A DNA stretch of 64,000 bases, taken from positions 7,983 through 71,982 of the forward strand of contig JBBRQB010000002.1 in assembly GCA_038227105.1 (NCBI GenBank), read 5' to 3'. This document shows, piece by piece, positions 1 to 14,611 of the stretch. The stretch is from Candidatus Limnocylindria bacterium (GTDB lineage: Bacteria; Chloroflexota; Limnocylindria; P2-11E). Made by a program: the position numbers and the translations under genes. The notes below the pieces were generated by a model that saw only the letters and a program-made list of their open reading frames with translations, did not search any database and had not been told where the DNA came from. Each line of letters begins with the position of its first letter. The stretch's first letter is position 1.

Positions 1-967
1 CCTTCGCCGCTGCCGAGAGGCGTGAGCCCTGGATGACCACCATGCCGATCGCGCCGTAATCGAAGCGGCCCTCGAAGCCGATCCGGCCGAGCGTCGCGAA
101 CCCCACGGCGACGCCGATGCCGAGCCCGAGGTCGTGGCCGCGCTTGCGCCAGCCGGCCTCGAGCTCCGCGAAGCGCTCCTGCATGGCGACCGCCATTCGC
201 GTCGCCTGGAGCTGCGGCTCCGGGATCTCGACCGGGTCGTTGAAGAACACCATGATCCCGTCGCCGGCGAAGTGCTCGACAGTGCCCTCGTGACGGAAGA
301 TGACCTCACCCATGGCCGCCTGGTACGCGCGGAGCACCCCGAGCGCCTCCTCCGGCTCCGCGGTCTCGGAGAAGGCCGTGAACCCGCGCAGGTCCGCGAA
401 CACGACCGTGATCTCGCGGCGGTGGCCGTCCAGCAGTGCGTCGCCGCCGGTGGACATGACGAGCTCTGCGATCTGCGGCGACAGGAAACGGCGTAGCCGG
501 CCGAGGCGGCCGAGCTCGTCCACCTGCTCCTGCACACGTTGCTCGAGCGTGCGGTTCCACTCCGCGAGCTCGACCTTCTGGCGCTCGCTCTCGTCGTGGT
601 ACGTCTTCACCCGGAGCAGTGACTTCACGCGCGCGAGGAGCTCGGGTTGGTCGAAGGGCTTCGCGATGAAGTCGTCGGCGCCGGCTTCGATGGCTTTCAC
701 CTTCTCCGGGAGACCGCTCGCCGTGACCATCACGACCGGCAGGAAGCTGGTCAGCGGATCAGCACGCAGCCGGCGGCACACCTCGTAGCCGTCGATGCCG
801 GGAAGCATGATGTCGAGCAGCACGAGGTCCGGCTTCTCGGTCAGCGTCTTGAGCAGCGCCTCCTCACCGGTCAGCGCGGTCACGACCTGGTAGCCGTTCG
901 GGACGAGCACGGCCTCGAGCAGCCGCAGGTTCTGCGGGATGTCGTCGACGGCGAGGATCTTGGTCAC
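1..967 (-). CDS. Response-regulator receiver fused to class III adenylate/guanylate cyclase (5' part; 3' end beyond window start)
   Basis: Own minus-strand translation from GTG at 967: VTKILAVDDIPQNLRLLEAVL...LVLLDIMLPGIDGYEVCRRL (REC) then ...REITVVFADLRGFTAFSE...FAGDGIMVFFNDP (class III cyclase motifs). No stop before position 1. GTG overlaps the TGA of the upstream CheY gene (GTGA). Absent from ORF track because truncated. Confidence 0.75.
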   Translation of the reverse strand, partial: MTKILAVDDIPQNLRLLEAVLVPNGYQVVTALTGEEALLKTLTEKPDLVLLDIMLPGIDGYEVCRRLRADPLTSFLPVVMVTASGLPEKVKAIEAGADDFIAKPFDQPELLARVKSLLRVKTYHDESERQKVELAEWNRTLEQRVQEQVDELGRLGRLRRFLSPQIAELVMSTGGDALLDGHRREITVVFADLRGFTAFSETAEPEEALGVLRAYQAAMGEVIFRHEGTVEHFAGDGIMVFFNDPVEIPEPQLQATRMAVAMQERFAELEAGWRKRGHDLGLGIGVAVGFATLGRIGFEGRFDYGAIGMVVIQGSRLSAAAK

Positions 968-1341
968 GGCTTTGGGTCGATGTAGCTGCGGACCTGGTCA
1001 GGAAAGCTCTTCACGTCGATCGGCTTCGCGATGAATCCATCGAAGCCGGCCTTGTCGAACCGCTCACGATCGCCGGTCATCACGGATGCCGTGAGCGCCA
1101 CGGTAGGGATGTGTTTCGTCCTCTCGTCCGCGCGGATGCGCTGCATGGCCATGATCCCGTCGATCCCGGGCAGCTGGATGTCCATCAGGATGAGTGCGGG
1201 CAGATGCTCGGCGCTCATCGTTACGGCGGTCTCACCGTCGATCGCCTCGACCGTGCGGAAGCCGTGGAATCGCAGCACGTCGCGAGCGAGCTTCATGTTC
1301 TTCTCGTTGTCCTCGACGATGAGGATCAGCTCATTGGCCAT
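964..1341 (-). CDS. Single-domain CheY-like response regulator (receiver only)
   Basis: ORF track 125 aa: ILIVEDNEKNMKLARDVL...LILMDIQLPGIDG...KPIDVKSF is a typical REC fold. The ATG is adjacent to the stop of the upstream HK (1342). Confidence 0.85.
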   Translation of the reverse strand: MANELILIVEDNEKNMKLARDVLRFHGFRTVEAIDGETAVTMSAEHLPALILMDIQLPGIDGIMAMQRIRADERTKHIPTVALTASVMTGDRERFDKAGFDGFIAKPIDVKSFPDQVRSYIDPKP

Positions 1342-4300
1342 TTAGGCTCCCTTCACCACGGGCAGCGTGACGGTGAACGTACTGCCTTTGCCCGAGGTGC
1401 TCTCGACCGTGATGGTGCCACCATGCAGCTCGACCATCCGCTTGGAGAGGGCCAGCCCGAGGCCGGTGCCCTCACGAGACTTTTCGGTCTGGTGTCCGGC
1501 CTGTGTGAACTCCTCGAAGATCCGCTCTTGGTCCTCGACGGCGATGCCGATCCCGGTGTCGTGGACGGCGAGCTGGATGTGGCCGTTCTGCTGGTCGGCG
1601 CGCAGCCGAACCGTGCCCCCGTCCGGCGTGAACTTCACGGCGTTCGCCAAGAGGTTCACCACGACCTGCTTCACCTTGCGCTCGTCGGCGACGACCTCAT
1701 CGAGCGCCGGCGCCATGTCGAGCTCGAGCTTGATCCCGTGACTCTGCGCCCGCTCTCGCACGAGGGTGACCGCGTTGTTCAACGCGGCCACGAGCGAGAA
1801 CGGCGCGAGCTCCAGCTCCATGCGACCGGCCTCGATCTTGGAGAGGTCGAGGATGTCGTTGATGAGCGTCAGCAGGTGTTTGCCGGATGAACGGATGTCC
1901 TCGAGGTAATCGGCCTGCTGATCGTTCAGCTCGCCGAACATCCGCTGCAACAGCACATCGGAGAAGCCGATGACCGCGTTCAGCGGCGTGCGGAGCTCGT
2001 GTGACATGTTGGCGAGGAACTCGCTCTTGTGCTGGTTCGCCACCTCGAGCTGCGCCGATTTCTCCTGGATCTCGTTGAACAGGCGGACGTTCTCGATGGC
2101 GATGGCCGCCTGACGAGCGAAGGATTCCACGAGGTCGATCTCGCGGTCGGTGAACGGTCGCACCTCGATGCGGACCAACACCAGGACGCCGAGCACGTCG
2201 TCACCGCGCAAGAGCGGCACGCCGATGCCGGTACGCGCACCGATCGCGACCATGCCGCGCGAATCCGCGACAGTCTCATCGGCGGTGACGTCGTGGATGT
2301 GGATCGTCCGTCGCTCGCGGAACGCCCGCCCCAGGACCGACGCGGCGTAGGTGATTTCCGCGACCGGGCCCCCCGATGTGGTGGCGTCCTCCGGTCGCCT
2401 CGACGCGACCAATTTGCCATTGCCGTCACGATCGGTCTGCCGGATCCAGCCGTACTCGGCCCGGCAGAGCGCGAGCGACTTGTCGAGCACCATCTCGAAC
2501 ACCGGCTTCAGGTCGAACGCGCTCTGGCTCATTGCCGCGAGGAGCTCCGCGGTCGCGGTCTGGCGCTCGAGCGCCTCCTGCGTCTCCCTGAAGAGTCTGA
2601 CGTTCTCCATGGCGATCGCGGCCTGTGTCGCGAAGGACTCAACGAGCTCGATGTCGCGCGTGGAGAAGGGATCTACCTCGCGCCGGCCGAGCTGGATCAC
2701 GCCGATGGGCTCACCGTCCTTCAGGATCGGTATCGCCAGCCGTGTACGGACGAGTCCCGCTTGCGCGCCCGACCGCAGCTGCTCGTCGAGTAGGACATCG
2801 GGTATGTGCACGGCCCTCCGGGTCACGACCGCTCGTTCCAGGGTGCTGGTCGCGACCGCCGGATCGAGCGTGCGTCGCACGAGGTGTGTCGCCGCATCGC
2901 GTGGCCAGTCTCCGGATGACGCGTCATAGAACCATTCGCCGCCGTCGCGCTGCCAGATGACCGCATGGTCGGCGCGGCATAGTGCGAGCGATGATTCGGC
3001 GATCGTCTGTAGCACCGGCCCGATATCGAACGCCGACCGGCTGATGACATCCAGCACGCTGCTCGTCGCGGTCTGGCGCTCAAGCGCCTCCTGCGTCTCC
3101 TTGAACAGCCGCGTGTTCGCGAGCGCGATGACCGCTTGATCCGCGAAGGTCTGCACGAGCTCGATCTGCCGCTCAGAGAACCCGCGGGGCTCGCGGCGGC
3201 GCAGGACGATCGCGCCCAGCGCCCGGCCGTCGCGCATCAACGGCGCGCTCAGGATGGCCCGCTGGCCATCCCCTCGGAGCGATATCGCCTTGCTGAGCGG
3301 ATATTCGTCGGTCGCGCGAACGTCCGCTATATGGATCGTGCGGCGCTCGACGATGGCGCGACCCGTGACGGTCAGCGAATCGATCGGCGTGCTGGTGGCC
3401 ATGTCGATCGGACCAGCATGGGCGGACGCGACTGCCTGGTCCCCTTGGACGATCATCACGGTGACGTCCTCAGCGCCTGCGAACCGCGCCGCGCTCACCG
3501 CGATCGCATCAAGGACCGGCTGGATATCGGTGGGTGATGCCGAAATGACCTTGAGAATGTCGCCGATGGCCATCTGACGCTCGAGTGCCTCACCGGTCTC
3601 GTTGAACAGCCGGGCGTTCTCGATCGCGATCACCGCCTGGTCAGCGAAGGTCTCCACGAGGGCGATCTGCTCGGCGGAGAAGGAATTCGCGCTCGTTCGC
3701 CAGAGGGCGATGACGCCGATCGATCGGCCTCCCGTGATCAACGGCACCGAAAGCAGGACCTTGAAGCCGCCGAGCCGTTTGGCGTCGGCGTAGGTGTACG
3801 TCGGGTCGGCGTCGACATCGGGGATGTGGACCGTGCGTCGCTCGGTGAACGCGCGACCCGTCGCTGAACCGAGGTTGTCGGACCTGATCGGGTTCTCGCG
3901 CTGCCATTCGCGCATGACATCCGCCCGGGGACCGAACGCCGCACTCATCGCGAGGAGCTCGCCATCAGCCCGGTAGAGGAAGCCGTTCTCCGCCTCGCTG
4001 AGGCGGGTCGCATGCGAGATGACGGTGCTCAGGAGGCCCTCGAGATCGAGGGCGGAACCGCTGATCGCCTTGAGGATCTCGCTTGTCGCGGTCTGACGTT
4101 GCAGCGACTCCTTCGTTTCGTTGAAGAGCCGGACGTTATCGAGCGCGATGACCGCTTGTGACGCGAATGTCTCGACCAGCTCCACCTCCTGCTCGCTGAA
4201 TGCACCCGGCCTGATGCGCCGCAGCTGGATCGCGCCAACGGCGCGCCCATCCTTGAGGAGTGGCGCAGCGAGGAAGCCGCGATACCCATGCTCGGCCGCG

Positions 4301-6780
4301 TACGCCTTCGCCTCGCCGAATTCGGCGTCGTCGAGGTCCTCCATGTCAGGCACGTTGTACAGGCGTCCTTCGCGGATGACGCGTCCGGTCACGAATCGAT
4401 CTGACAGCGGGAACACCTGCTTGGGTACGGCGAGCTTGCCATTGGTCGCAACGAGATCCACGTCGCCGTCCGCGCGAAGGAGGGCGACCGCGGCATCATC
4501 CGCGTTGCAGAAACGCCCGGCGCTCGCCGCGATCGTGTCGAGGACCGGTTGCACGTCGGTTGGTGAGCTCGAGATCACCTGCAGGATGTCGCTGATCGCC
4601 GTCTGTCGCTCGAGCGCCCCCTTCGTCTCGTTGAAGAGGCGCACATTTTCCAGGGCGATGACGGCCTGGTCGGCGAACGCGCGAAGCAGGTCCGCGTCTC
4701 GCTCACTGAATGCACCCGCGGTCGATCGCCGCAGCGCGATGCCGCCGATCGCGGTGCCTCCACGCAACAAGGGCGTGGCGATCGTGGCGCGGAAGCCAAA
4801 GCGACGCGACGTCTCTCGTAGCGCGGGGAATTCCGGGTCATCGAGGGTGTTCGCTGAGTGGATCGTCCGGCGCTCGAGAACGGCACGGCCCATCACGCTT
4901 GCCTGATCGGCCGGCCATAGCTCGTCCGGTCCCCGCAGCGGGATCGGCCCGTGATGCGCGCGCGTGCTGAACTGACCGTCGGCGTAGAGCGCGAGGAGCG
5001 CGTCCTCGCAGCCGCAGAACCGGACCGCATTGCGCACGATCGCGTCGAGTACCGGTTGCTGCTCGGTCGGCGAGCTCGCGATGACCTGCAGGATCTCGCC
5101 GAGCGCCGTCTGGCGCTCCAGCGACTCCCTTGTTTCGTTGAAGAGCCGCACGTTCTCGATGGCGATGACCGCCTGATCGGCGAAGGTCTCCAGTAGCGCG
5201 ATCTCCTTTTGCGAGAATGGGCGTGCGACCTCCCGGCGCGCCACGATGACCCCTATCAGCTGACCGTCGCGCGCGAGCGGCACCCCGAGGAGGGTGCTGT
5301 GCGGCGGCGCCTGTCCGGTCGCCCGCCGCTGGCCGCTGTATTCACCGTCCGCCGCCGTATCCGGGATCTGCACGCTTCGTCGTTCGAGAAGCACCCGGCC
5401 GGTCAGTGTCGCGCGCGTTGGCGCGATCGGATGCTCCTGCCAGTACGCGATGAAGTCCTCCCGGTCGGGGATCGCGCCGGCGTCCGCCAATAGGTGCGCA
5501 GCGCCGCCGTCGATGCCGAGGACGTAGGCGCTGTCGGCGCCGCAGAGCTGAACAGCGTTGTGCACGACCGCGTCGAGGACCGGAGCAACGTCCTGCACCG
5601 AGCCGCTGATCACCTTCAACAGGTCGCTCGTCGCCGTCTGCCGCTCGAGCGCTTCCTTCGTCTCGTTGAACAGGCGGACGTTCTCCATCGCGATGACGGC
5701 CTGGTCAGCGAAGGTCTCGACGAGCTTCACTTCGCTCTCACTGAACGGCTGCACCCGGTTGCGGCGTAGCAGGAAGGCGCCGATCACCACGTCGTCGCGG
5801 CGCAGCGGTACGACGAGCAGCGTGCGGGTCTCGGCCATCTCCTTCGGGATCCTGCCCAATGCGATATCCGTGGCGGACGTGGCCGCGTAGTACTCGTGCA
5901 GGCGGGTATCGGCGATATGGACGGAGCGCTTCGTCTTCAGCATCTGACCCATCCCGCTTTTCGGCGAGATCGGCGTCAAGGCGGGATCGAGCTGCTCCAC
6001 GGTCGAGCTCGCGACATTGCTGCGCATGCGACCGTCGATGCGGCTCACGGTCGCGTTGTCGGCTCCACAGATCCGCGCCGCACGCCCGGCGAGCATGCGG
6101 AGGATCGCGTCCAGATCGAACGCGGACCGGCTGATCGCCCGAAGCACATCCGCGGTCGCGGACTGCTGGTCGAGCGCCTCCCTCGTTTCTTTGAGGAGCC
6201 GCGCGTTCGCCATCGCGACCGCGAGCTGATCGGCGAACGTCTCGACGAGCGCGATCGTCCCCGGTTCGAAGCCACCCGGATCGTTGCGCGAGGTCAGGAT
6301 CACCCCGATCGTCTCGCCCCCGTGACGGACCGGCACGGCGAGCCGCGTCCGACGCCGTTCGGCGTCATGTAGCTTCGGCTCGGCGAGGATCGTGTCCGCG
6401 TAGTGGAACCGTTGACCGCTGAGGGCGGCGCGACCAAAGATCGTGCCGGGATCCGCTGTCACGCGGTCGCCGGGCTTCCCCGGAGCCTGCCCGTACGTCG
6501 CGGCAAGGACGTAGCCGTCCACGTCGCGCCGGATGAATCCGCCGTTGTCGGAGCCCGCGAGGCGGACCACAGCTCTCACGACCATATCCGCGACCGTGTC
6601 GATCTCCACCGTGGGATCGGCGAGGGCCCGCATCACGGCGCTCACGGCGTCCAGCTGCTTTCGCGCGTCGTCGCGCACCGCCGCCGCCGGCTTTGTCGAC
6701 GCCGTCAGCTTCTTGAGGGGCGCGGCCTTCTGTGCGGCGACCTTCGTGACCGCTCGCTTCCTGCCCGTCCCCGACCTCAC
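1342..6780 (-). CDS. Cytoplasmic multi-GAF sensor histidine kinase (~9 tandem GAF domains + HisKA + HATPase_c)
   Basis: ORF track 1812 aa. The linker motif [23 protein letters not shown] recurs 8 times between ~165-aa GAF units. C-terminus has [17 protein letters not shown] (H-box) and [18 protein letters not shown] (G2 box). No TM segments. GTG start at 6780 is 1 bp from the divergent neighbour's ATG, so the true start may be the GTG at 6678. Confidence 0.85.
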
Positions 6781-6781
6781 G

Positions 6782-8965
6782 ATGTGCGCAAGTATCGGCG
6801 CGCCGCAATACCCTTGCGCCGCGGGAGGGTGCTTGGATATCTGGCAGATCCTGCGCGACCGGCTCGACTACGCGTCGTTCGTCCCGACCCCGCTTCCCGA
6901 CGTGGAACGCGCCGATCTCCGGCGTCGCGACGGCTCGCCCTATTCGGTGCTGAAGAACCAGCGTGGGGACAAGGGCGCGGGCCGGTATCTGCGGCTCGAT
7001 GTGGCCGATGTCCAGCTCTACGAGCTGATGGATGGACAGCGTTCGATCCAGGACATCCTCATGGCGCACGTCGAGCGCAACGGCGTCTTCGCGCTGGATC
7101 GCCTGGCGCGCCTCACGGCGCAGCTCAGGGCGAACGGCTTCTTCGGCGAGGAGCCGCCGATGCTGTACGAGAAGCTGTTCGCGCGGCGCGCGATGCGCGA
7201 TCCCATCGCGCGCGCGTCGACCTTCCTCAAGCGGCTCGTCGTGTGGGACATCGCCCGGTGGTCGAACGCCGACCGCCTCGTGGACGCGGTGTACCGGCTC
7301 GGTGGCCGGCTCGCGTTCACGCGCGTCGGTGCCGTCGCGCTCGTAGCCTTCGGTCTGTACGGGCTCTGGACCTGGTTCGGTGAGGTGCGCTCACCGCGCC
7401 ATCAGCTCGCGACGATCGACGGCTCCTACGTACTGGGCATCCTCGCGCTCGTCCTCCTGCAGGTGGCGTCGATCTCGGTGCATGAGGCCGGTCACGCCCT
7501 CGCGATCCGGCACTTCGGGAGGCGCGTCCGACGCTTCGGCGTCGCGATGTATTACCTCTTCCCGTGCTTTTACGTCGACTCGACGGACATGGTCCTCGGC
7601 ACACGCGCGCAGCGGATCGTCGTGTCCCTCGCCGGGCCGTTCGCGGGCCTGACCGTCGCGTCCGCTTGCGCGCTCGTGGCGGCGGGGCAACCCGACACGC
7701 TCACCGGAAGCCTCATGTTCAAGGCCGCGAGCCTGTTCGTCTTCCAGTTCATCTTCAATCTCCTGCCGATCCTGGAGCTCGACGGCTACCACGTGCTCAC
7801 CGACGCGCTCGACGCGCCGTTCCTGCGCCAGCGGGCGCTCGGGTTCGTGCGCGGCGCGGCATTCGTGAAGCTGCGTCGTCGCGCCACATGGTCACGTGAG
7901 GAGGTCGGCCTCGCGATCTTCGGCATCACCGCGATCGTCACGTCCCTCGCGACGCTGGTGCTGTCGATCCAGCTCTGGCGTTCACGCATCGGTGTCGCAT
8001 CTCAAGAGCTCCTCGCCATCGGACCGGCGGGGATCCTCGCGCTCGCGCTGCTGGTCCTCGTCTTCGTCGGCCCGCTCGCGGTCGCGGTCATCGCGCGGGT
8101 GACCGGCACCGTGCGCACGACCGTCAACCTCGCACGCTCCCGCAGCCGCGCTGTGACCCAGCGCGAGCAGCAGGAGCGCGTCGCGATGCTCGCTCGCGTG
8201 CGATTCCTCGCGGGACTGCCAGGCCCGGCGCTCGTTGCGCTCGCGTCGCAGCTGGACATCGAGCACGCCGATGCCGGACGGACCGTGATCACCGCGGGCA
8301 GCACCGGCGACCGCTTCTACCTCGTGCGATCGGGCTCGCTGCAGGCCGTGGCCGTCGACGGCACGGTGCTCGGGACGATCTCGGCCGGAGAGGGCTTCGG
8401 CGAGCTCGCGCTGCTCGACGGAACGCCGCGGACCGCGACGGTCCAGGCCCTCGAGGACTGCGAGCTGTGGTCGCTCGACCGGCCGCACTTCCAGCGGTGG
8501 ATCCGTGACCGGTACGAGATCGCCGCGCGCATCCGCGCCGACATCGGCGCTCGGACCGCCCTCGCGGCCCTGCCGTTCTTCCGCGATCTGGAGGGCCGCG
8601 AGCTCGACGCCACTGCCGCGCGCCTGCAGGCCCGGCGGTACGAAGACGGTGACGTCGTGATCCAGGCGGGAGAAAGTGGCGGCGGCTATTACCTGATCCG
8701 CGAGGGCACGGCCGACGTGGCCCTCCCGGACGGCCGGCACGTGCGCACCCTCGGCCCCGGCGACGGCTTCGGGGAGCTCGCGCTCATCTTCGGGACGCCG
8801 CGCACGGCGACGGTCACGGCGAAGGGCCCACTGGTCGTCGGAGTGCTCGGACGGTCTGATTTCGCGGCGCTTGTAACTGCGTCAGGCGAAACGATGGGTG
8901 AATTCCGCCGCAGGACGGGCCATTATGTCGGGGCTGGCCTTGGCGGGGCCGTTGGGGGAGCGTAG
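6782..8965 (+). CDS. M50/site-2-type intramembrane metalloprotease with N-terminal PqqD/RRE-like domain and two C-terminal cyclic-nucleotide-binding domains
   Basis: ORF track frame 6533..8965. [13 protein letters not shown] (HExxH) in a hydrophobic segment plus [12 protein letters not shown] (M50 NxxPxxxxDG motif). N-terminal [53 protein letters not shown] resembles PqqD/RRE. Two cNMP-binding units ([10 protein letters not shown]...[21 protein letters not shown] and [10 protein letters not shown]...[21 protein letters not shown]). Start uncertain: ATG 6782, TTG 6833 (after GGGAGGG) or ATG 7028. Confidence 0.8.
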
Positions 8966-9181
8966 GTGGACTGTTGGACCTGTGAGCGCCCGGCACTCGC
9001 GGCATGCCGGTTCTGTGGCCGCGGCGCCTGCCGGGAGCACGCGCGGAGCCATCCCTTCGTCCTCGACGTCTTGCGTGGCACCCGGCATCAGGGGCTGCGG
9101 GCCCTCGTCGTGGAGGACGCCGTCCATTGCGGCGTCTGCCGGCCCCGGAGCGAGCCGGTCGACATGCCCGAGCTGGAATAG
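8966..9181 (+). CDS. Small Cys-rich zinc-ribbon protein (DUF2180-like pattern)
   Basis: ORF track 71 aa: MDCWTCERPALAACRFCGRGACREHA...VHCGVCRP (CxxC x10 CxxC x4 C ... CxxC). GTG start immediately after the protease TAG (8963-8965), consistent with translational coupling. Confidence 0.55.
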   Translation: MDCWTCERPALAACRFCGRGACREHARSHPFVLDVLRGTRHQGLRALVVEDAVHCGVCRPRSEPVDMPELE

Positions 9182-10341: not shown

Positions 10342-11013
10342 CTAGTAGCGGATGTCGCCCTGCAGGACGGCGCGGTCCTTCAGGGCGAGGTTGCGGCGGC
10401 CGATCTTGATCGCGCCGCGCTTCTCGAGGTCGGCGAGGACGCGGTTCACCGACACGCGGGTCGCTCCGACGAAGCCGGCGAGATCCTCCTGGGTCATGTC
10501 GATCTGATCCGTGCCCGAGGCTTCCGCGAGATCCAGCAGGCACTTCGCGACCCTCCCCGGGAGGTCCAGGAACACGAGGTCTTCCACGTGGCCGGTGCTC
10601 CGGCGGACGGTCTTCACCAGGAGCGCCAGCATCCGGCGCATCGCGTCAGGGTTCCGCTCGAGCGTCCCGATGAATTCCTGCCGCGCGAGTGCCAGCGTGT
10701 GGGTCTCGGTGATCGCCGTCACCGTGGCGGATCGCGGGCCGTCGTCGAACAGCGCGAGCTCGCCGAAGACGTCACCGCCGCGCTCGAGCGCGACCACGAC
10801 CTCGCGGCCCTGCTCGTCCGGCACGCTGACCTTCACGGTGCCCGAGGTGATCAGGAAGACCTGCCCGGCCGGGTCGTCGTTGTGGAAGATGACCTCGTCC
10901 CGTGCGAAGTGCCGCGGGCGCATCTTGCCGGCCAAGGCCAGCCGGTCCGCTGGGCTGAGACAGGCGAAGAGCGGGCTTTCACCCAGGTAGTCGGCGACCG
11001 CAGCGGTATCCAC
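10342..11013 (-). CDS. CRP/FNR family transcriptional regulator (cNMP-binding + HTH)
   Basis: ORF track 223 aa: FHNDDPAGQVFLITSGTVKV...GDVFGELALFDDGPRSATVTAITE (cNMP-binding) and C-terminal EDLAGFVGATRVSVNRVLADLEKRG (HTH). GTG start. Confidence 0.9.
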   Translation of the reverse strand: MDTAAVADYLGESPLFACLSPADRLALAGKMRPRHFARDEVIFHNDDPAGQVFLITSGTVKVSVPDEQGREVVVALERGGDVFGELALFDDGPRSATVTAITETHTLALARQEFIGTLERNPDAMRRMLALLVKTVRRSTGHVEDLVFLDLPGRVAKCLLDLAEASGTDQIDMTQEDLAGFVGATRVSVNRVLADLEKRGAIKIGRRNLALKDRAVLQGDIRY

Positions 11014-11343: not shown

Positions 11344-12282
11344 TCACCGCTGGCCAGCGAGCTCCAGGAACCGCGGCTTCACCTCGGTCATCGTCCGTTC
11401 GATCGTCTCGCGGTCGTAGGGCGGGGACATCCCGAACAGGAAGCCTTTCACGCCGATCCGGTGGTACTCGACGAGCTTCTTCGCGATCTCGTCCGGTGAC
11501 CCCAGGACCGCCGGCCGGTTCGGCGCCTCGACCTTGTTCCGCGTCGCGACCTCGCGCATGCGCTTGTCGACGTCGTTGAGGTCGTCGCGGACAAGGATGC
11601 CGCCGCCGCCGGTCGGGGCGATCTCGTTGTAGTCGCGGCCCACGTCCGCGCAGTGCTTCTTCAGCACCTCGAGTTTGTGCTTGATCACATCGGGTGTGCC
11701 GAAGCCGTGCCACCAGTCGGCGTAGCGCGCGGTGATCTTCAGCGTTACCTGCTCGCCGCCACCGCCGATGAGGATCGGCAGGCGCTTCTGGACCGGGCGG
11801 GTACCCAGCGTCGCGTCCTCGAGCTGGTAGTACTTGCCGTGGTACGTCATCGTGCCCTCGTCGAGCAGGACGCGGTTGATGCGTGTCGCCTCACGTAGCT
11901 TCGCGAGCCGGATCGCGGGCGTGTCGAAGTCGATCCCATACATCTTGTGCTCGTGCTCGTTCCAGGCCGCGCCGATGCCGAGCACCGCGCGGCCGTGGCT
12001 GATGTTGTCGAGGGTCGATGCCATGTTCGCGAGCACGGCGGGGTAGCGATACGTGTTTCCACTGACGAGCATCCCGATGAGCGGCTTCGTGGTGATCGCC
12101 GCGAGTGCGGGCAGGATCTGCCAGCCCTCGAGGTTCGGCCCCGTGATGTCGCCCATCAGCGGCACGAAGTGGTCCCAGGTCATGAGGACGTCCCACCCGG
12201 CCTGCTCGGCGAGGAGCGCGGCGTCGCGCATCTCGTCCCAGGTCGTGTACTGCGGATGGAGCTGAAGACCGAAGAACGTCAT
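11344..12282 (-). CDS. LLM-class F420-dependent oxidoreductase (luciferase-like monooxygenase family)
   Basis: ORF track 312 aa: MTFFGLQLHPQYTTWDE...DVLMTWDHFVPL...ILIGGGGE are typical LLM motifs. Confidence 0.85.
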   Translation of the reverse strand: MTFFGLQLHPQYTTWDEMRDAALLAEQAGWDVLMTWDHFVPLMGDITGPNLEGWQILPALAAITTKPLIGMLVSGNTYRYPAVLANMASTLDNISHGRAVLGIGAAWNEHEHKMYGIDFDTPAIRLAKLREATRINRVLLDEGTMTYHGKYYQLEDATLGTRPVQKRLPILIGGGGEQVTLKITARYADWWHGFGTPDVIKHKLEVLKKHCADVGRDYNEIAPTGGGGILVRDDLNDVDKRMREVATRNKVEAPNRPAVLGSPDEIAKKLVEYHRIGVKGFLFGMSPPYDRETIERTMTEVKPRFLELAGQR

Positions 12283-12302
12283 GAGCTGCCTCCGAGCGTA
12301 TA

Positions 12303-13658
12303 GTGCGGACTCCGATGGCGCTCACGAAGGATCGCACCGACGTCGCCCAGGTCCTCGCCGACACGAAAAAGCACGTCCTCGTCAACTGGTCGGCGCAGGG
12401 AAATAGTTCGCCGCTCGTCATCACCGGGGCCGAGGGCGTGTGGCTCCACTCGGGTGACCGCCGGATCCTCGATTTCAGCTCCGAGCTGGTGAACTCCAAC
12501 CTCGGGCACGGCCATCCACGTGTGGTCCGCGCGATCCAGGAGCAGGCGGCGATCCTCAACTACGTCACGCCGGCGTTCACGACCGAGGCGCAAGCGACCC
12601 TCGCGCGCATGCTCGCGGACGTGACGCCCGGCGACCTGACCCGGACGATCTTCACGACGGGCGGCACCGAGGCCAACGAGAACGCCATCAAGCTCGCTCG
12701 CCTCGCGACCGGCCGGCACAAGATCCTCACCCAGTGGCGCAGCTTCCATGGCCAGACGCAGGGCGCGATGACGCTCGGCGGCGACAACCGTCGTTGGGCC
12801 AATGAGCCCGGCATCACCGGCGTGGTCCATTTCCTGAATCCCGATCCCTACCGCTCGCTCTTCGGCGACGACGCGCAGAAGGCGCTCGCGCACGTCGAGG
12901 AGGTCATCTGGTACGAGGGTCCGCAGTACATCGCGGCGATCCTGGTGGAGCCGATCGTCGGCACATCTGGCCTGCTCGTGCCGCCGGATGGATTCCTTCA
13001 GGGCCTGCGGACCCTATGCGACAAGCACGGCATCCTCCTCGTGTTCGACGAGGTCATGACCGGGTTCGGCCGGACCGGGAAGTGGTTCGCCGCGGAGCAC
13101 TGGAACGTGGCGCCGGACATCATGACCTTCGCGAAGGGCGTGACCTCGGGCTACGTCCCGCTCGGCGGCGCGATCGTGAACGAGCGCGTCGCGAAGCACT
13201 TCGACCAGAACGTCTACTGGGGCGGGTTGACCTACAGCGGTCACGCCCTCGCGTGCGCCGCCGGCATCGCGACGCTTGAGACGTACGAGAGCGAGGGATT
13301 GATCGGGAACTCCGACAAGATGGGCGACCTCCTCGGCCGCGAGCTCAAGGCGCTCGCCCAGAAGCATCCGTCGATCGGCGACGTCCGCGGGCGCGGACTC
13401 TTCTGGGGTATCGAGCTCGTGAAGGACCGCGGCACCAAGGAGATGCTCGAGCAGTGGAACGGTCCCTCGAGCGCGCTCGCGAACGCGCTCAAGGCCGCGC
13501 TGTTCAAGCGCGACGTGTATGTCTTCTGCCGCTGGAACATGCTGTTCGTCGCGCCTCCGCTCATCGTGACCGAAGACGAGCTGCGCATCGGCATCCGCGC
13601 CATCGATGAAGCGCTCGAGATCGCCGACCGCTACGCCAGCACGGGGAAGCTCGAATAG
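12303..13658 (+). CDS. Class III (omega-) aminotransferase, PLP-dependent
   Basis: ORF track 451 aa: SELVNSNLGHGHPRVVRAIQEQ...LVFDEVMTGFGRTGKWFA...TFAKGVTSGYVPLG (class III signature; the GFGRTG region). Confidence 0.85.
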   Translation: MRTPMALTKDRTDVAQVLADTKKHVLVNWSAQGNSSPLVITGAEGVWLHSGDRRILDFSSELVNSNLGHGHPRVVRAIQEQAAILNYVTPAFTTEAQATLARMLADVTPGDLTRTIFTTGGTEANENAIKLARLATGRHKILTQWRSFHGQTQGAMTLGGDNRRWANEPGITGVVHFLNPDPYRSLFGDDAQKALAHVEEVIWYEGPQYIAAILVEPIVGTSGLLVPPDGFLQGLRTLCDKHGILLVFDEVMTGFGRTGKWFAAEHWNVAPDIMTFAKGVTSGYVPLGGAIVNERVAKHFDQNVYWGGLTYSGHALACAAGIATLETYESEGLIGNSDKMGDLLGRELKALAQKHPSIGDVRGRGLFWGIELVKDRGTKEMLEQWNGPSSALANALKAALFKRDVYVFCRWNMLFVAPPLIVTEDELRIGIRAIDEALEIADRYASTGKLE

Positions 13659-13744
13659 CCGCCAGCGCCTCGCGGGTCCACTGGGGCATCAACCTGCCGG
13701 CACAGCACACCACCTGGCCCGAGCTCCGGGACACCGCGCTCCTC

Positions 13745-14611
13745 GTGGACCGCCTCGGCTTCGACTCGCTCTTCACCTGGGACCACTTCGTGCCGCTCGA
13801 CGGCGATCCGAAGGGACCGATGTTCGAGGCCTGGGAGCTGCTGGCAGCGTGGGCGGCGGTGACGAAGACGGTGCGCCTGGGGACGCTCGTCACCGGAAAC
13901 ACGTACCGGCACCCGCCCGTGCTCGCGAAAATGGCGGCGACGTTGGATCACGTGTCCGAGGGCCGCGCGATCCTCGGCCTCGGCGCCGCATGGCACGAGG
14001 CCGAGCACGCGATGTACGGCATCCCGTTCCCGAGCACGGGTGGCCGCCTCGCGCGGATGGACGAGGCTGCGCGCGTGCTCCGAATGCTGCTCGATGACCG
14101 CTCCTCCTCCTTTGAGGGCAAGCACTACCGGTTGAAGGACGCGGTCGCCGAGCCGAAGCCGGTGCAGAAGCGCCTGCCGATCCTCATCGGCGGTGGCGGC
14201 GAGCAGAAGACCCTACGGACCGTCGCGCGCTATGCCGACTACTGGCACGGCCACGGTGACCCCGCGGTGATCCGGCACAAGCTCGACGTGCTCGCGGCGC
14301 ACTGCGCCGAGATCGGGCGCGACGTCGCGGAGATCACGCCGCTCACGACGGTCCGGCCGGACCTGATCCTGCGTGACCGGAGGGCCGACGTCGAGGCGCA
14401 GCTCGAGCGCGTCCGGGTCCGCTCCCGCGCCACGGAGCCGCTCGCGATGAATGAGATCCACACGGTCGACGCGCTCGTGGAACGCTGCGCCGCGCTTTGG
14501 GCCGCAGGAGCACGCGGCTTCATCCTGTACGTCAAGGCGCCGTTCGACCACGAGACGATCGAGCGCATCGCGAACGAGGCCCGGCCGCGGCTCGAGGAGG
14601 TGATCGCATGA
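13745..14611 (+). CDS. LLM-class F420-dependent oxidoreductase (second paralog); N-terminus probably extends upstream
   Basis: ORF track 288 aa from GTG 13745. In-frame upstream translation (~13673..13744) RVHWGINLPAQHTTWPELRDTALLVDRL aligns with the N-terminus of the first LLM (MTFFGLQLHPQYTTWDEMRDAALLAEQ) but holds no ATG/GTG/TTG. Confidence 0.8.
   Translation: MDRLGFDSLFTWDHFVPLDGDPKGPMFEAWELLAAWAAVTKTVRLGTLVTGNTYRHPPVLAKMAATLDHVSEGRAILGLGAAWHEAEHAMYGIPFPSTGGRLARMDEAARVLRMLLDDRSSSFEGKHYRLKDAVAEPKPVQKRLPILIGGGGEQKTLRTVARYADYWHGHGDPAVIRHKLDVLAAHCAEIGRDVAEITPLTTVRPDLILRDRRADVEAQLERVRVRSRATEPLAMNEIHTVDALVERCAALWAAGARGFILYVKAPFDHETIERIANEARPRLEEVIA

Follow-up and report, generated by a model that had tools for sequence, protein, structure and literature searches.

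Gene organization at the locus

The locus considered here lies in a stretch of 64,000 nucleotides (nt), hereafter the window, of contig JBBRQB010000002.1 from a Candidatus Limnocylindria bacterium, and all coordinates are window positions. An open reading frame (ORF) of 71 codons encoding a Cys-rich micro-protein is located immediately after the gene for an intramembrane metallopeptidase of the M50 (site-2-protease) type, which carries a RiPP (a ribosomally made, post-translationally modified peptide) recognition element (RRE) and cyclic nucleotide monophosphate (cNMP)-binding domains, and is followed by the genes for a leader-bearing, precursor-like protein and a Crp/Fnr-family regulator (Table 1). 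This ORF is a real gene under purifying selection, and the pairing of micro-protein and M50-cNMP peptidase is near-obligate in both directions.

An ORF of 71 amino acids (aa) with a GTG start right after the protease TAG had been described in the initial annotation of the window together with its cysteine pattern, and both descriptions are borne out by the sequence, the residues concerned being C3, C6, C14, C17, C22, H25, C55, and C58. The junction reads GGGGGAGCG TAG GTG GAC TGT TGG, with the peptidase TAG (8963-8965) and the GTG in the same frame, and runs resembling GGAG or GGGAG occur at the place equivalent to the Shine-Dalgarno-like element in most homologous loci. The geometry of this junction suggests that the peptidase and the micro-protein are translationally coupled.

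Table 1. Features of the micro-protein locus in the window
Feature	Position	Strand	Remarks
Intramembrane metallopeptidase, 710 aa	6833..8965	+	RRE (PqqD-like), M50/site-2-protease core, then two cNMP-binding domains
RRE-like domain of the peptidase	6833..7240	+	
Shine-Dalgarno-like GGGGGAG	8954..8960	+	Among the final codons of the peptidase, 5 nt ahead of the GTG
Stop-start junction TAG/GTG	8963..8968	+	0-nt gap, peptidase stop then micro-protein start
Micro-protein gene (predicted DUF2180-like Cys7His metal-binding protein)	8966..9181	+	71 aa, GTG start
N-terminal ligand block C3-x2-C6-x7-C14-x2-C17-x4-C22-x2-H25	8972..9040	+	Includes invariant CRFCGRG
Long beta-hairpin, residues 27-54	9044..9127	+	Strands 27-37 and 44-54 in the AlphaFold2 (AF2) model; conserved ALVVEDA on the second strand
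Fourth ligand pair C55-G-x-C58	9128..9139	+	Invariant
Proline-rich acidic C-terminal tail RPRSEPVDMPELE	9140..9178	+	Consensus PRxxPVxLPELE, terminal E or D
Precursor-like protein, 324 aa	9304..10278	+	N-domain of ~62 aa, LigA-like/NHLP-clan (Os1348 family), ending GVDSRMSKAF, then repetitive low-complexity tail
Crp/Fnr-family regulator	10342..11013	-	cNMP-binding domain and helix-turn-helix

Conservation and coding evidence of the micro-protein gene

Among 5.8 billion protein clusters searched, 84 proved to be related to the micro-protein (46-87 % identity), nearly all of them 69-71 aa long and starting and ending as the window protein does; overall, the length of the protein stays within 69-72 aa, and a scan of one genome per species detected a relative encoded in 531 species genomes, the best 80 of which are all bacterial metagenome-assembled genomes (MAGs) from Candidatus Limnocylindria, other Chloroflexota and Actinomycetota. 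MAGs of Micromonosporaceae and Solirubrobacterales are among the carriers of a relative. Conservation and the ratio of nonsynonymous to synonymous substitution rates (dN/dS) were evaluated on 83 unique coding sequences taken from these loci. By the Nei-Gojobori method, dN/dS was 0.036 against the closest locus, L008 (dS 0.36), and 0.08-0.13 against L011-L013, while the fractions of non-consensus bases by codon position were 0.15/0.11/0.37, the third being about three times the second. The aligned start position is occupied by ATG, GTG or TTG in 84 of 86 sequences (GTG 43, ATG 32, TTG 9), and the residues invariant among the unique sequences are C3, C6, A10, C14, R15, F16, C17, G18, R19, G20, C22, H25, P30, V49, A52, C55, G56, C58, P64, and L70.

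The possibility that the ORF is spurious in this GC-rich DNA, which could be argued from the overlap of two longer ORFs in other frames and from the absence of the exact 71-aa product from a collection of ~15 billion predicted proteins, has already been refuted and retains next to no probability. Both overlapping ORFs lack a coding-type GC pattern, whereas the GC content by codon position in the micro-protein ORF (0.76/0.55/0.86) is similar to that of the neighbouring genes; together with the low dN/dS, the spread over hundreds of genomes and the conserved length, start and stop, this is the opposite of the missing conservation or poor coding statistics that the initial annotation had named as the signs of an artefact. 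The gene seems to have been missed in the annotation of the source assembly, since the peptidase from the same DNA is present in the database at 100 % identity, unlike the micro-protein.

Linkage of the micro-protein and the peptidase

The linkage sample comprised 81 loci found via the micro-protein plus the window. A long upstream ORF ends between -1 and +30 nt from the micro-protein start in 76 of these 82 loci; 18 loci have a gap of exactly 0 nt and 6 show a 1-nt overlap, and the gene directly upstream is that of the peptidase in nearly all of them. When the peptidase was taken as the starting point, the micro-protein gene was found within 17 nt (-1 to +17) in 51/51 metagenome loci, counting those in which the peptidase ORF is complete and sufficient DNA follows it. 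Inspection of homologous loci, the check proposed for the coupled arrangement, thus revealed that it is conserved.

Two other forms of linkage were considered and rejected. Read-through of the peptidase stop codon into the micro-protein is not supported, as the gap is divisible by 3 in just ~39 of the 82 loci and the frame is not preserved. Apparent fusions of a cNMP domain with the micro-protein among distant database matches (P0186, P0132, P0169, and P0219) look like frameshifted or chimeric calls and were not used as Rosetta-stone evidence.

Regarding the peptidase itself, the Pfam profiles cNMP_binding (two copies, 138 bits) and Peptidase_M50 (43 bits) match the protein, and an RRE fold is present in the N-terminal domain, fused ahead of the M50 core. 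The best NCBIfam match is daptide_HExxH, with 128.9 bits over profile positions 23-365 of 379 and an equivalog cut-off of 300, followed by YydH/LiaK. The start of this gene, listed previously at 6533, is most likely located at 6833 because the database homologue P0234 is 710 aa long and 100 % identical. The relatives retrieved by searching with the peptidase were all close ones (54-100 % identity). Matches to Pycsar effectors in PADLOC, which might have indicated a defence system, stem only from the cNMP-binding domains and the micro-protein had no match, and this reading was discarded.

Upstream of the peptidase and divergent from it, the window encodes a histidine kinase of 1812 aa in which GAF-like modules are repeated many times (1342-6780, minus strand); a peptidase start at 6533 would overlap this gene. 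Similarity to the N-terminal part of this kinase, mostly as short matches, was detected upstream of the peptidase in ~33 related loci. In a Micromonosporaceae MAG (L081) the peptidase homologue reaches ~1570 aa, and its degenerate cNMP-like domains are followed by a membrane segment and by a long extension, rich in Pro and Thr, that contains repeated domains. The micro-protein gene is still found 9 nt after this ORF.

Protein family, metal ligands and predicted fold

The micro-protein had been likened to zinc ribbons of the DUF2180 type (PF09947), and the relationship to DUF2180 is sustained as remote homology whereas the description as a simple ribbon is not, the protein being predicted to form an eight-ligand finger with a long beta-hairpin. 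With Pfam, the window protein scores 17.6 bits against DUF2180, below the gathering cut-off of 22.2 (E 0.0045, residues 1-27 only), and 24.6 bits against C5HCH, below the cut-off of 26.3 (residues 1-27); zf-AN1 is also a weak match, and a scan of NCBIfam gave no match. The same tendency is observed within the family, since among 30 members DUF2180 was matched weakly by 28 (E <= 0.1, best 5e-5), C5HCH by 28 and zf-AN1 by 14. A profile search of 1.84 billion representatives retrieved 202 proteins at E <= 0.001, the more distant of which include ~70-aa proteins at or above the DUF2180 cut-off. When the family was aligned by hhalign with 20 relatives found by its profile, 18 of which match DUF2180 (best E 2.4e-7), the probability was 99.7 % (E 5.4e-26, residues 1-64), and the seven cysteines are invariant in the DUF2180-like set as well. 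Based on this profile-profile match and on the distant relatives that reach the DUF2180 cut-off, the micro-protein family is assigned, as a remote homologue, to a bacterial branch of the DUF2180-like superfamily.

The AF2 model (pLDDT, the predicted local distance difference test, of 85.9) consists of zinc knuckles and a hairpin. The predicted fold is a Cys7His two-site finger that resembles AN1, B-box, C5HCH, and FYVE fingers; the micro-protein matched the C5HCH of NSD3 at E 0.057, and a Foldseek comparison of the model with the PDB gave nothing at E <= 0.001. The spacing of the ligands, typical of two-site cross-brace fingers, suggests interleaved binding of two metal ions, presumably zinc, in which the eight ligands would form four pairs, the first and third holding one metal and the second and fourth the other. 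A beta3-alpha3 winged helix of the PqqD-like RRE type was not seen in the model, whose sole helix is a 3-residue turn.

The C-terminal tail is modelled with lower confidence (pLDDT 55-71) and is conserved in both phyla, with P60, P68, and E69 nearly invariant beside the fully invariant proline and leucine mentioned above. It falls outside the part that can be aligned to the DUF2180-like proteins, which have no PxPVxLPELE tail. On this comparison of sequences, the acidic tail is specific to the micro-protein subfamily, and it is proposed as a candidate docking motif.

The ligand set also invites a different explanation, in which the micro-protein has a redox or metal-handling function, be it that of an iron protein akin to rubredoxin, of a thiol redox switch or of a metallochaperone supplying the peptidase with its catalytic zinc. 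Its seven invariant cysteines in CxxC pairs and weak matches to PknG_rubred would be in line with such a function, as would the context of a distant DUF2180-like relative, P0159 (L087-L090), which is encoded directly after a rubrerythrin/ferritin-like gene with no M50 peptidase nearby, a hint that other superfamily branches may have to do with iron or redox processes. However, the ligand spacing fits two-site structural fingers (AN1, C5HCH) better than rubredoxin and the cassette has no conserved gene for a redox partner; moreover, a redox role would be compatible with that of a peptidase subunit. This explanation, the second in rank among the alternatives, is considered rather improbable.

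A small Cys/His-rich protein next to a site-2-protease homologue could likewise be a zinc-binding anti-sigma (ZAS)-type factor, or a partner released by regulated proteolysis, as had been contemplated in the initial annotation. This fourth-ranked alternative is effectively refuted: no zf-HC2 or other anti-sigma model of Pfam or NCBIfam was matched at E <= 1, both the H-x3-C-x2-C motif and a membrane segment are absent from the micro-protein, and no sigma-factor gene was found adjacent to it in related loci or among the window neighbours examined (histidine kinase, peptidase, precursor-like gene, Crp, luciferase-like oxidoreductase-like ORFs and an aminotransferase-like ORF).

Downstream peptide genes and putative Crp-type regulation

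The product of the gene that follows the micro-protein in the window passes the NCBIfam model NF038399 (64.3 bits, cut-off 40) and is matched by Pfam Frankia_peptide below its threshold (34 bits, cut-off 48). A precursor-like gene is kept downstream in Limnocylindria loci, which contain one to three leader-domain genes with hypervariable tails of 120-460 aa; the end of the leader domain, G(V/I)DxRMSK(A/S/T)F, is near-invariant and, judged by this pattern, looks like a processing site. The leader-domain proteins (window, L008, L013, L014, and L021-L059) share the N-domain of ~62 aa ahead of repetitive, low-complexity tails, have a total length of 180-525 aa and often occur as two or three tandem paralogues.

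The situation in Actinomycetota (L001-L003, L064-L086) is completely different. Here the micro-protein gene is followed after 60-200 nt by genes for highly basic peptides of 42-60 aa, MA(D/E)KKITPKxP...RVTKTS, with C-terminal tandem repeats that vary by lineage (KKMQA, KKTLA, KKVSR, KKLGH, NAR, TRKS); with a GC content at third codon positions of ~0.9, these are probably real genes. The downstream gene is therefore replaced completely between the phyla, while the micro-protein stays 55-60 % identical. In a Dehalococcoidia MAG (L005, DATKDX010000060.1), six tandem Os1348-type genes of 65-66 aa were detected near the micro-protein gene (positions 1-3500 of the locus). Two genes whose products look secreted or membrane-bound lie among them. 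Each Os1348-type product has only a basic tail of 5-8 residues after GVDERL(S/T)K (AIKFR, VAKVRP, GVKIRM, AMRWK, RKRFH).

In most loci, a gene for a Crp homologue is found next to the cassette. In 12 loci (L001-L004, L032, L037, L041, L065, L067, L075, L080, and L084), the sole perfect TGTGA-N6-TCACA of the locus lies at -1 to +105 nt past the micro-protein stop, in the spacer ahead of the peptide gene, which thus appears to have its own Crp-type operator. This position implies that the micro-protein gene belongs to the peptidase unit and not to the peptide unit. The cassette of the window contains no Crp operator (<=2 mismatches, outside coding sequence), sigma-70-like promoter, terminator-like site or Rfam match.

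No enzyme is conserved in the cassette across phyla. In the window, the Crp gene is flanked (11344-14611) by three ORFs named from their translations, two of them luciferase-like oxidoreductase-like and one aminotransferase-like. These are seen again in 12-21 loci of Limnocylindria but in no other phylum, and may represent ordinary synteny outside the cassette.

These arrangements bear on two further explanations. The first of all the alternatives in rank is that the micro-protein acts as a substrate adaptor or chaperone, the finger binding the downstream leader-bearing precursor and passing it to the peptidase. In the window and most Limnocylindria loci the micro-protein gene stands between those of the peptidase and of the precursor-like protein, which agrees with this idea, and small zinc fingers commonly mediate protein-protein contacts. 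On the other hand, the micro-protein is conserved beside the unrelated Lys-rich repeat peptides of Actinomycetota as well as in L005, in which the precursors are located 5-8 kb off on the other side, and the peptide gene has its own putative operator. Since the pair persists with unrelated peptides, the micro-protein is tied to the enzyme and not to the substrate, and it is an unlikely recognition element because the peptidase carries a leader-binding RRE domain of its own. The adaptor or chaperone suggested in the initial annotation is weakened by these observations and is regarded as unlikely.

The remaining alternative, third in rank, is that the micro-protein is itself a substrate of the peptidase or a RiPP precursor, as could be expected of a small, Cys-rich product that adjoins a leader-peptidase-like enzyme. 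Conservation over its full length with low dN/dS and a confidently predicted compact fold with no leader/core organization argue against this, as does the fact that the loci contain no radical-SAM or other Cys-modifying enzyme, and the probability given to it is very small.

Proposed role of the micro-protein

Based on the linkage and the conservation described above, it can be hypothesized that the micro-protein is a dedicated cytoplasmic subunit bound to the RRE-M50-2xcNMP peptidase, a proposal to which we assign about an even chance; less confidence is placed in its acting as a gate of this enzyme. Physical binding to the peptidase, its stoichiometry and the direction of regulation are inferred. 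Micro-protein and peptidase would be made together, probably at a ratio of ~1:1, through the stop-start coupling, and the micro-protein would be a regulatory or gating partner of the peptidase and not an element of substrate recognition. The conserved face of the hairpin (ALVVEDA) and the acidic tail (PxPVxLPELE) may dock on the cytoplasmic side of the peptidase, where the micro-protein would hold back or license cleavage of the products of the neighbouring genes, the leader-bearing repetitive peptides. These peptides would be expressed under the Crp-type regulator, and the action of the micro-protein would be linked to the cNMP sensors.

In a more specific and quite unlikely version of this proposal, the micro-protein would gate a kind of peptide maturation machine under second-messenger control that has not been described before: the acidic tail would plug or clamp the cytoplasmic entrance of the RRE-M50 peptidase until cAMP or cGMP, possibly together with oxidation of the finger, releases it, and the Crp-controlled leader-bearing repetitive peptides would then be cleaved.

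Several observations weigh against the proposal of a dedicated peptidase subunit. An orphan micro-protein gene is located between ispG and glmU in L062, with no M50 gene within 10 kb, and in a Dehalococcoidia genome the micro-protein gene, which has a hydrolase-kinase gene after it, is divergent from an unknown 554-aa gene and the peptidase; therefore, tight coupling is not universal. In addition, considering the ferritin-like neighbour of P0159, the metal could be iron, and the data do not separate an inhibitory from an activating or a purely structural role.

If the proposal is correct, a member of the DUF2180-like superfamily would for the first time be placed in a functional context, and the micro-protein would be the first small soluble partner reported for a RiPP-/site-2-type intramembrane metallopeptidase fused to cyclic-nucleotide sensors. 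The superfamily is already known as a domain of unknown function, and the protease-linked, tailed branch is below the thresholds of Pfam and NCBIfam. In the literature, no paper was found on this branch, on the cassette or on cNMP-fused RRE-M50 peptidases, and nothing relevant on Franean1_4349 or DUF2180. The four-part cassette (peptidase, zinc finger, leader-bearing repetitive peptide and Crp regulator) is distributed in hundreds of genomes of uncultivated soil Chloroflexota and Actinomycetota and makes a connection of cAMP signalling with peptide processing open to test. From a practical point of view, the micro-protein gene has apparently been overlooked by annotation.

Comparison with known systems

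Os1348 of Pseudomonas sp. Os17 (PMC7726476) and Frankia_peptide are LigA-like leader domains of RiPP precursors (PMC12353581), and the gene after the micro-protein resembles them in that its product passes the family model (64.3 bits against a cut-off of 40). The Os17 cluster differs in that it encodes a GNAT protein, a gluzincin/HExxH protein and a SagB-type dehydrogenase (PMC7726476) and has neither an M50-cNMP peptidase nor a zinc-finger protein, whereas long repetitive tails are a feature of the cassette described here.

In daptide biosynthesis, the leader peptide is described as being removed by MpaP, an intramembrane site-2 protease fused to an RRE (bioRxiv 10.1101/2023.03.08.531785). 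By this description, both enzymes share the N-terminal RRE and the M50 core, and the peptidase of the window adjoins a leader-type (NF038399) precursor gene. However, it remains below the daptide equivalog threshold (128.9 bits against 300) and carries two cNMP-binding domains, and in the cassette a daptide-type precursor with an invariant C-terminal Thr is lacking and no conserved MpaB/C/D/M set was found. The text of the daptide paper dealing with MpaP, M50, metalloprotease or intramembrane proteolysis showed no zinc-finger partner (bioRxiv 10.1101/2023.03.08.531785), and the micro-protein therefore appears to be specific to the cNMP-bearing branch of these peptidases.

Pfam DUF2180 is an uncharacterised small Cys-rich family described as "conserved in archaea." Its members and the micro-protein are both ~70 aa long and share the pattern M-x-C-x2-C-x7-C-x2-C-G-R-x-x-C-x2-H ... 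V-x-(D/N)-A-x-x-C-G-x-C. The micro-protein branch is bacterial in the best 80 loci, not archaeal, and has in addition the PxPVxLPELE tail and the linkage to an M50 peptidase.

With regard to the eukaryotic cross-brace fingers (AN1, B-box, C5HCH of NSD proteins, and FYVE), the micro-protein scores below the thresholds of all these families, and it is distinguished from them by the 28-residue beta-hairpin before the last ligand pair and by being a stand-alone bacterial protein.

SpoIVFB of Bacillus subtilis is an M50 protease with a nucleotide-sensing domain of the CBS type, which binds ATP, and is kept inactive by the small partner proteins SpoIVFA and BofA, the latter being a membrane protein. 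The micro-protein is instead a predicted soluble finger unrelated to BofA in sequence and fold, the sensor of the peptidase would respond to cNMP, and inhibition is hypothetical in this case. By analogy, nonetheless, both systems may follow the same logic, in which an M50 protease is combined with a cytoplasmic ligand sensor and a small dedicated partner able to gate it.
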